Virus record (IMG/VR): IMGVR_UViG_2778261504_000024
Length of the DNA: 6,371 bases
Strand: one strand, 5' to 3'
DNA from: a virus
Taxonomy: Duplodnaviria; Heunggongvirae; Uroviricota; Caudoviricetes
Shown: positions 4,244-4,396 of the stretch, one piece after another
Layout of the letters: each line of letters begins with the position of its first letter
How positions within the stretch are numbered: the stretch's first letter is position 1
Program-made: the position numbers and the translations under genes
The notes under the pieces: generated by a model
Databases searched by the model: none
The model's input: only the letters and a program-made list of their open reading frames with translations
What the model was told of the DNA's origin: nothing

Positions 4244-4272
4244 GGCGACCCTTTTGCGGTCGCCTTTGTTTT
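4244..4272 (+). terminator. Rho-independent terminator (plus strand) after the 101aa/57aa operon
   Basis: Perfect 7-bp stem GGCGACC (4244-4250) / GGTCGCC (4258-4264), 7-nt loop, followed by TTTGTTTT (4265-4272). No T-tract on the minus-strand side. Confidence 0.5.
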
Positions 4273-4288
4273 GCCTGTTATCCGGCAA

Positions 4289-4319
4289 TTGTGGCGCTTC
4301 GCCACACGGTTGATATAAT
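4289..4319 (+). promoter_or_regulatory. Promoter-like element with extended -10 (TGaTATAAT), overlapped by a 15-bp palindrome
   Basis: TGATATAAT at 4311-4319 matches the extended -10 consensus TGnTATAAT. Weak -35-like TTGTGG at 4289-4294 (19-bp spacer). Palindrome GTGGCG-CTT-CGCCAC at 4291-4305. Confidence 0.35.
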
Positions 4320-4325
4320 TCCCCT

Positions 4326-4396
4326 GCACTGATCCATTTTTTTCGCAGCAGGTTAATTGTTCGCAAGGGCGCTCCGGCAACGGGGCGCTTTTTGTT
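4326..4396 (+). ncRNA. Candidate small RNA (about 70 nt) between promoter-like element and a strong intrinsic terminator; speculative
   Basis: No ORF with start codon between the predicted start site (about 4326) and the terminator. Bounded upstream by the extended -10 and downstream by the GNRA-loop hairpin plus U-tract. Convergent to the alpA 3' end. Confidence 0.25.
4369..4396 (+). terminator. Rho-independent terminator (plus strand), GC-rich stem with GCAA tetraloop
   Basis: RNA stem GCGCUCCG (4369-4376) / CGGGGCGC (4381-4388), 8 bp including one G-U pair, loop GCAA (4377-4380), then TTTTTGTT (4389-4396). On the minus strand the G-U becomes a C-A mismatch and no U-tract follows, so it is plus-strand specific. 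Confidence 0.55.

Follow-up and report, generated by a model that had tools for sequence, protein, structure and literature searches.

A predicted small RNA gene convergent with alpA in a phage-inducible chromosomal island of Escherichia coli

The window examined in this study is the whole stretch of viral DNA that was analyzed, with a length of 6,371 nucleotides. On its minus strand, the list of open reading frames (ORFs) and family searches place an integrase gene at positions 5130-6371. The same strand carries alpA with a 76-amino acid ORF (orf76) beside it, an icd-like gene, and genes for a DUF4222 protein, a RepA/AAA_25 helicase-primase, and SSB. The genes that frame the region of interest are as follows.

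3238-3444, minus strand: icd-like gene
3641-3946, plus strand: gene for a YlcI/YnfO-family protein (NCBIfam NF041551; phrog_6522 over the full 101 amino acids)
3989-4177, plus strand: 62-amino acid ORF (phrog_21027), second gene of the plus-strand operon that ends at hairpins T0/T1
4424-4630, minus strand: alpA (Pfam Phage_AlpA PF05930, E = 4.5e-8), convergent with the predicted RNA gene

Gram-negative phage-inducible chromosomal islands (PICIs) occur widely as satellites and disseminate genes for virulence and resistance. Their hallmarks are an integrase, alpA, and primase/replication genes in one orientation, a size of ~10-15 kb, and a specific chromosomal site. The initial annotation of this DNA had suggested a P4-type satellite context. 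By gene content, however, the host element is an E. coli PICI of the EcCICFT073 type. This assignment is based on the set of genes present (int, alpA, icd-like, DUF4222, primase/helicase, SSB), on the capsid genes of a near-identical locus, and on a counterpart in strain CFT073. The near-identical locus (L001, strain M7424) shares 99.4% identity with the window. It is flanked by tRNA-Pro/yejM and yejO, and its further genes encode capsid, decoration, and small-terminase proteins. The CFT073 island, which lies between roxA and phoQ, shares this architecture and has a homologous spacer, and by gene content and position we take it to be the published EcCICFT073.

Several observations concern the genes around this spacer. 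PGAP annotates only the C-terminal 59 amino acids of the YlcI/YnfO gene (L001 8668-8847). The full 101-amino acid ORF has a GAGGAG ribosome-binding site and matches phrog_6522 from end to end, and the NCBIfam domain (residues 9-50) lies upstream of the PGAP start. For the icd-like gene, a match to phrog_6196 (93 amino acids, "transcriptional repressor") extends ∼25 residues upstream of the annotated start (3238-3553, minus strand). The peptide LLTTND..IE.AM upstream of this start is conserved across loci, and it may mark either the actual start codon or a leader that is conserved at the 5′ end. Between the YlcI/YnfO operon and the icd-like gene, the divergent region (3539-3622) contains TGAAACACAC three times, once inverted, and a promoter-like TTGACG-17-TAACAT is present on the icd-proximal side (3579-3551, minus strand). 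This region looks like a repressor-controlled divergent switch.

Directly upstream of alpA is a palindrome of 21+21 nucleotides, AAAAACAGTACCCACCGTTTT / AAAACGGTATCCACTGTTTTT, at positions 4695-4736, which is likely an operator for AlpA autoactivation or for a helper-phage inducer. In many relatives, alpA is separated from the RNA cassette described below by antirepressor genes of the Bro-N, AntA/AntB, or Rha type (L013 1891-2469, L016 1888-2688, L017, L018, L019). Chi sites (GCTGGTGG) occur eight times in 6.4 kb, in both orientations, compared to 0.26 expected from shuffled sequences. They are listed here by position.

361, 1124, 1352, 2354, 3325, 4187, 4840, and 5202, both orientations: Chi sites

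Several of these sites coincide with junctions of mosaic segments, and CCACCAGC is found repeatedly, at T0 and at the boundaries of right flanks in relatives.

The 246-nucleotide spacer between the plus-strand operon and alpA contains most of the features that are relevant to the predicted RNA. These features, together with two that extend beyond the spacer or lie on the other side of alpA, are the following.

4180-4229, plus strand: hairpin T0 followed by TTTTGTTTT, directly after the stop codon of the plus-strand operon (fold of 4178-4423)
4244-4273, plus strand: T1, intrinsic terminator of the plus-strand operon (terminator scan and fold)
4290-4306, no strand assigned: 7-bp palindrome TGTGGCG-CTT-CGCCACA over the −35/spacer region
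4311-4319, plus strand: extended −10 element TGATATAAT (motif search and variant comparison)
4326-4397, plus strand: predicted ∼70-nucleotide noncoding RNA, with its start placed 7 nucleotides after the −10 element and its end in the T2 U-tract
4345-4362, plus strand: conserved core GCAGCAGGTTAATTGTTC, single-stranded, with a U-run before it at 4336-4343
4365-4397, plus strand: T2, intrinsic terminator of the predicted RNA (terminator scan, fold, and 24 variants)
3238-4419, minus strand: stop-free frame of 393 codons from GTG 4419, with NF033153 at residues 344-387
4764-4849, minus strand: inverted T0-T1 copy (inverted repeats I1 and I2), with a terminator at 4793-4774 between orf76 and alpA

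The two plus-strand terminators reported in the initial annotation, T2 with a GNRA loop, were recovered by the terminator scan and by folding, and each combines a GC-rich stem with a U-run. A third plus-strand hairpin with a T-run, T0, had been omitted there. T0 includes a minus-strand Chi site (4187-4194), and its T-run is present in some variants only. The stem of T1 is formed by GGCGACC/GGTCGCC (7 bp, 4244-4264) and is followed by TTTGTTTTG; the RNA folds with −15.1 kcal/mol (z = −4.5). Three unrelated stem sequences are found among 28 variants of T1, and nearly all variants retain a GC-rich hairpin and the same T-run.

T2 has a 12-pair stem (4365-4392) capped by a GCAA loop (4377-4380) and followed by TTTTTGTT. 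In relatives, which were drawn from a comparison set of ∼100 related loci in complete E. coli genomes and IMG/VR contigs, the loop is GUAA or GGAA, or is otherwise replaced along with an alternative stem. T2 folds as a plus-strand terminator in all 24 variants, at −14 to −21 kcal/mol and always with a T-run after it. The mean folding energy over these variants is −19.3 kcal/mol for the plus strand versus −10.9 for the minus strand, where the T-run is missing. Single changes in the stem are G-U-compatible on the plus strand only, and the 24 variants include one compensatory change of a C-G to an A-U pair and one alternative stem. Formal covariation is weak, with 16 of 500 shuffles reaching the observed score; this count comes from a model-based alignment in which the alternative stem is out of register and counts as unpaired. 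Because only one T2 pair has changed on both sides, covariation is not the main evidence for this structure.

The strand bias extends beyond T2. The 73-nucleotide RNA folds with −23.9 kcal/mol (z = −2.55) on the plus strand compared to −12.6 kcal/mol (z = +0.48) on the minus strand, and for the whole spacer the corresponding z values are −4.07 and −1.37. Scanning and folding of the minus strand from 4424 to 4165 revealed no terminator-like site with a T-run. The T0-T1 segment (4185-4274) also has its inverted copy on the other side of alpA, with 84%-86% complementarity. Since this copy supplies a minus-strand terminator, alpA and the predicted RNA gene are flanked by terminators that face inward. 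The palindrome at 4290-4306 was considered as a conserved hairpin or operator, but it is poorly kept across 14 variants. Its function is doubtful because the hairpin is only loosely conserved.

Between T1 and T2 lies the extended −10 element TGATATAAT, which had been noted previously and which proves to be the sole perfect match to TGNTATAAT in the window. The sigma-70 extended −10 consensus is TGnTATAAT, and promoters of this type can dispense with a −35 element. No recognizable −35 is present here (the best candidates match two to three of six positions), and the site at 4311-4319 is missed by a consensus promoter scan for which a −35 is obligatory. A perfect match is expected 0.13 times by chance, and at least one was observed in 24 of 200 shuffled sequences. 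Thus the occurrence of the motif is not significant by itself, and its position and conservation are what count.

Conservation of the −10 element in relatives had been set beforehand as a check on the annotation. Among the distinct variants that carry the promoter region, 48 of 49 have an identical element, and the exception is a T-to-C change at its last position. This invariance is not due to general conservation, since 91 of 153 cassette columns vary. Nor can it be attributed to coding on the opposite strand. Positions 4312, 4315, and 4318 are third-codon positions of the open minus-strand frame, where silent changes are possible but none are seen; each such change would damage the −10 hexamer or its TG. 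Immediately downstream the sequence is highly variable, and the 25 nucleotides between the −10 element and the core exist in 18 versions. The region from T1 to the −10 element is also well conserved. A 19-codon minus-strand ORF (ATG 4337) was rejected as a codon-based explanation for the −10 element because its ATG is lost in the common CCAATTTTTT variants.

One explanation for these features is that no discrete RNA is made. T2 would then serve only as a second insulating terminator that shields alpA against transcription of the plus strand, and TGATATAAT would be conserved for another reason, such as recent shared ancestry, a protein-binding site, or minus-frame coding. The location of alpA between inverted T0/T1 copies agrees with this explanation, as do the good conservation upstream of the −10 element, the negative result of the −35-requiring scan, and the fact that the relatives all belong to one species group with much shared ancestry. 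However, T1 already ends the operon, and in one locus (L032) similarity starts right upstream of the promoter, with no T1 present. Three minus-frame wobble sites are among the nine consecutive invariant columns of the element, which stand in a cassette with 60% variable columns and are directly followed by highly variable sequence. An invariant −10 element between two terminators makes a role for T2 solely as a backup terminator unlikely, and we regard the insulation explanation as a whole as quite improbable.

The data instead support a standalone RNA gene that has its own extended −10 promoter and terminator. Transcription is predicted to yield ∼40 largely unpaired nucleotides, including the U-run, and then the terminator hairpin. 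As stated in the initial annotation, no plus-strand ATG-initiated ORF is present between the −10 element and T2. The RNA had also been described as lying opposite the 3′ end of alpA. It is indeed convergent with alpA, but its predicted end is 27 nucleotides short of the alpA coding sequence, which ends at 4424, and the two do not overlap. A small hairpin inside the RNA body was rejected because its pairs are not kept in relatives.

Within the RNA, the U-run and the 18-nucleotide core GCAGYAGGTTAATTGTTC, which adjoins the terminator, are retained, whereas the first ∼15 transcribed nucleotides vary. The core is kept in 36 of 38 relevant distinct variants, as counted with an upstream anchor that did not force its presence, and it is unique in the window even when three mismatches are allowed. 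Two further classes of loci share only the core and T2 and have different sequence upstream. In one of them CGCTATAAT is found at a similar distance, and in the other the core directly follows the plus-strand operon. In the proposed covariance comparison across homologous islands, a covariance model detected one RNA copy per locus in 97 of 100 related loci (72-102 bits).

The cassette is present in 444 of 5,426 complete E. coli genomes (∼8%) as judged by BLAST, is full-length in 289 of these, and reaches as many as six copies per genome. Carriers include the islands of CFT073 and EAEC 042. The predicted RNA corresponds to 1388326-1388255 on the minus strand of NZ_CP051263.1 in CFT073, and the EAEC 042 copy is on the plus strand of NC_017626.1 at ∼2248136-2248221. 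The annotation at these sites is nothing, a hypothetical protein, or an Icd-like pseudogene, and never an RNA. Similarity between islands stops exactly at the T2 U-tract, beyond which four unrelated right-hand flanks occur. About half of the islands with the T0/T1 region are without the RNA cassette (883 versus 444 genomes). In locus L017 (1574-1620), the promoter and RNA body are cleanly deleted between two copies of TCCGGCAA (window positions 4281-4288 and 4373-4380), with the result that the 3′ half of T2 now follows the T1 tail. The frequent absence of the cassette and this clean deletion indicate that it is dispensable for the island.

This pattern is also what might be expected of a trans-acting, Hfq-type small RNA, an autonomous "moron" expressed from the quiescent island that would regulate host or helper-phage mRNAs through its core. 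A 3′ hairpin with a U-tail and an internal U-rich stretch is the usual layout of Hfq-binding RNAs, and the predicted RNA has all of these elements in addition to the conserved core. The core and U-run are maintained while the first ∼15 nucleotides vary, loci with a replaced promoter region still have the core and T2, and the cassette is optional and mosaic like other small RNA genes of mobile elements. Yet no target above chance was found in the window, the related loci, or phage lambda. In the window, where a search for complementary targets had been proposed, the best interaction other than with the RNA's own antisense strand has −31 kcal/mol, compared to −30 to −35 kcal/mol for shuffled seeds. 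A search of 1.5 Mb of related loci gave nothing beyond shuffled controls, and the longest complementary run in phage lambda is 14 nucleotides versus 13-17 in shuffles. In some loci, which do not include this window, a recurrent 13-nucleotide match spans the start codon of the gene that follows icd. Low core diversity may also partly reflect recent spread by recombination. We consider this trans-acting function somewhat unlikely, but cis-antisense and trans roles are not mutually exclusive.

The comparative data strengthen the earlier proposal of a standalone small RNA gene of ∼70 nucleotides, through the invariant −10 element, the retained T2 fold, and the cassette boundary at the U-tract. The gene does not lie in empty intergenic DNA, however. 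A minus-strand frame without stop codons runs antisense to T2, the RNA, the promoter, T1, T0, and the plus-strand operon, and it ends with the icd-like gene. An in-frame ATG is present at 4404 with GAGG at 4417-4414. By shuffling, the chance of such openness in the window is ∼4e-4, which derives mostly from noncoding parts and becomes weaker if the icd-like gene starts further upstream, as phrog_6196 suggests. The frame is open for 300-540 codons in ∼90 of 100 distinct loci (e.g., L012 561-1973, L014, L024). The icd frame has no stop in 47 of 49 cassette variants, compared to an average of 1.7-3.1 stops in each of the other five frames. Moreover, the five length classes of the spacer (158, 164, 170, 311, and 317 nucleotides) are all 2 mod 3, such that the frame is preserved.

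Most flank classes have an in-frame ATG to the right of T2, with the exception of the largest class, and the classes differ in where the in-frame start lies with respect to the RNA. Two flank classes share the N-terminal motif M-x-x-G/E-Y-x-P-E-x-G-R-G-F-V-R-P. A weak Bro-N/antirepressor remnant, fused in frame, makes up the first ∼90 residues in the CFT073 class. Substitutions in the cassette have no codon periodicity, with 29, 33, and 29 variable columns by codon position. For this reason translation of the minus-strand frame is not proven, and openness of the frame rather than a protein sequence appears to be under selection.

It could be argued that the region is simply part of a long minus-strand gene for an Icd-like protein and that the plus-strand signals are incidental. 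This would account for a frame that is open in ∼90% of loci, for the frame-preserving length classes, and for the shared N-terminal motif. PGAP annotates a 470-amino acid "Icd-like protein" across the frame in one genome and a pseudogene elsewhere. However, the absent codon periodicity speaks against this. The translated extension is of low complexity and has no family match except for the C-terminal Icd-like domain and the weak Bro-N remnant. In addition, the terminator hairpins are specific to the plus strand, as are their T-runs. An open frame is compatible with an antisense RNA gene, and both can coexist. We consider a long protein gene with incidental plus-strand signals very unlikely. 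We regard the conserved open frame as real, and it fits a need for continued translation of a read-through RNA from alpA.

The location of the RNA antisense to the interior of a stop-free frame changes its most likely mode of action. Transcription of PICIs has been described as unidirectional, in the direction of alpA, and expression of ORF3 as dependent on AlpA (PMC6092414). Our preferred explanation, which we advance tentatively and with somewhat less than even confidence, is that 4311-4397 is an independent gene for a ∼70-nucleotide noncoding RNA that would act constitutively as a cis-antisense RNA against alpA read-through transcripts and thereby help to keep the island quiet. A mechanism of the OOP or sar kind is favored because no minus-strand intrinsic terminator follows alpA, because of the unidirectional transcription (PMC6092414), and because of the full complementarity of the RNA to any transcript that continues past alpA.

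If this hypothesis is true, then the RNA would be made constitutively from the sigma-70 extended −10 promoter, with a start near 4326, and the alpA transcript would run on past alpA toward the icd-like gene. Given the lack of a minus-strand terminator after alpA and the open frame, the RNA would be fully complementary to this read-through RNA. Complementarity begins 8 nucleotides after the in-frame AUG (4404) with its GAGG Shine-Dalgarno sequence in this window. A distance of 8 nucleotides past an AUG is inside the region covered by the 30S subunit. Pairing with the read-through RNA may block translation or trigger cleavage, and the result would be polarity on the downstream icd-like and replication genes. 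This would help the island to remain quiet until self-activating AlpA expression, induced by a helper phage, overwhelms the antisense RNA.

Several observations complicate our cis-antisense explanation, among them the dispensability of the cassette, the variable position of the in-frame start, the absent codon periodicity, and the weak formal covariation in T2. Cis-antisense pairing does not need sequence conservation, yet the core is kept even in classes with an exchanged promoter region, a pattern better matched by a trans target or by a site for a protein. Also, the promoter-like site at 3579-3551 could make read-through unnecessary for expression of the icd-like gene.

A broader and more speculative proposal is that the YlcI/YnfO operon and the RNA, acting antisense within a translated leader, are the missing repression/immunity switch of Gram-negative PICIs. 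The operon and the RNA would be the only leftward transcription units of the island. The translated leader would couple alpA to the icd-like and replication genes, and the RNA would govern translation-coupled read-through from alpA into the replication module and, with it, Rho-dependent polarity. We know of no master repressor for Gram-negative PICIs, but this complete scheme is unlikely.

The RNA is of interest because it lies in that part of Gram-negative PICIs which is least understood; whether a global repressor of these islands exists has been called "unclear" (PMC6092414). An RNA gene that is conserved, has a putatively constitutive promoter, and faces the master activator alpA readily suggests itself as one component of the missing control, and the cassette is found in the prototype CFT073 island and in hundreds of genomes. 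If the RNA acts in trans, then host or helper-phage genes would have a new regulator that is carried by a satellite. At minimum, a probable RNA gene is missing from several hundred genome annotations, which carry a "hypothetical" or "Icd-like" pseudogene call in its place.

The RNA does not correspond to a family that has already been described. A scan of the whole window against Rfam 15 (E ≤ 10) gave only a chance match to SAM-VI elsewhere. The absence of a match in this region excludes C4/CI, sar, Esr41, STnc100, and all other curated families, and is in accord with the earlier statement that no similarity to the P4 CI RNA is evident. BLAST against 50,697 phage genomes returned no match to the cassette, and against plasmids it returned two E. 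coli records only. An AlpA-based search with one genome per species found only distant, irrelevant loci. In the literature searched, no publication connects a small RNA with PICIs or alpA, and the sequence does not appear in any of them. The most fitting description of the RNA is that of a new family among RNAs of a known kind, the small regulatory RNAs of phages and satellites.

Among these RNAs, C4 of P1/P7 and CI of P4 provide precedent for RNA control of an operon that begins with icd. In the P1 immI region icd follows c4, and the icd-like gene likewise heads the downstream operon in this island. This arrangement raises the idea of an immunity RNA of the C4 or CI type whose pairing partners would be repeated sites in the icd operon leader. 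[quoted passage not shown] There is no C4 or other Rfam match in the spacer (E ≤ 10), and no complementary sites above chance exist in the window. The failed covariance-model match and the absent target sites refute membership in the C4/CI family, and immunity of this type is extremely improbable here. What may be shared is the regulatory logic of P1 c4-icd-ant, where a block to translation of an upstream frame leads to Rho-dependent polarity; the same logic is proposed above.

The Hfq-dependent RNAs Esr41, AgvB/AsxR, and PasA-D from pathogenic E. coli are short, mosaic RNAs on horizontally acquired DNA that have a 3′ terminator hairpin and U-tail (PMC5286369; bioRxiv 10.64898/2026.05.13.724894). 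With the RNA of this study they share a conserved seed beside the terminator. They reside in lambdoid prophages or SpLE1 and several are in Rfam, whereas the RNA described here is located in a PICI regulatory region and has no match in Rfam or in the phage genomes. Its location, the Rfam result, and its absence from phages rule out Esr41 and PasA-D as its identity.

The sar RNA of the P22 immI region is an antisense RNA of ∼69 nucleotides that has its own promoter and is located in a regulatory region with antirepressor genes. It blocks translation initiation by pairing near the start codon, at the ant ribosome-binding site. For the RNA reported here, which does not match sar in Rfam, pairing would begin 8 nucleotides after the putative leader AUG, and in one flank class only.

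The lambda OOP RNA (∼77 nucleotides) acts antisense on the transcript of the regulator gene cII and overlaps the 3′ end of its coding region. By comparison, the predicted RNA of this island has no sequence similarity to OOP, stops 27 nucleotides short of alpA, and is complementary only to the region downstream of it. In organization the two are nevertheless alike. OOP is short, has its own constitutive promoter and a strong intrinsic terminator, and is convergent with a regulator gene. Judged by its sequence, the predicted PICI RNA likewise has its own promoter and terminator, includes no ORF, and is convergent with alpA.
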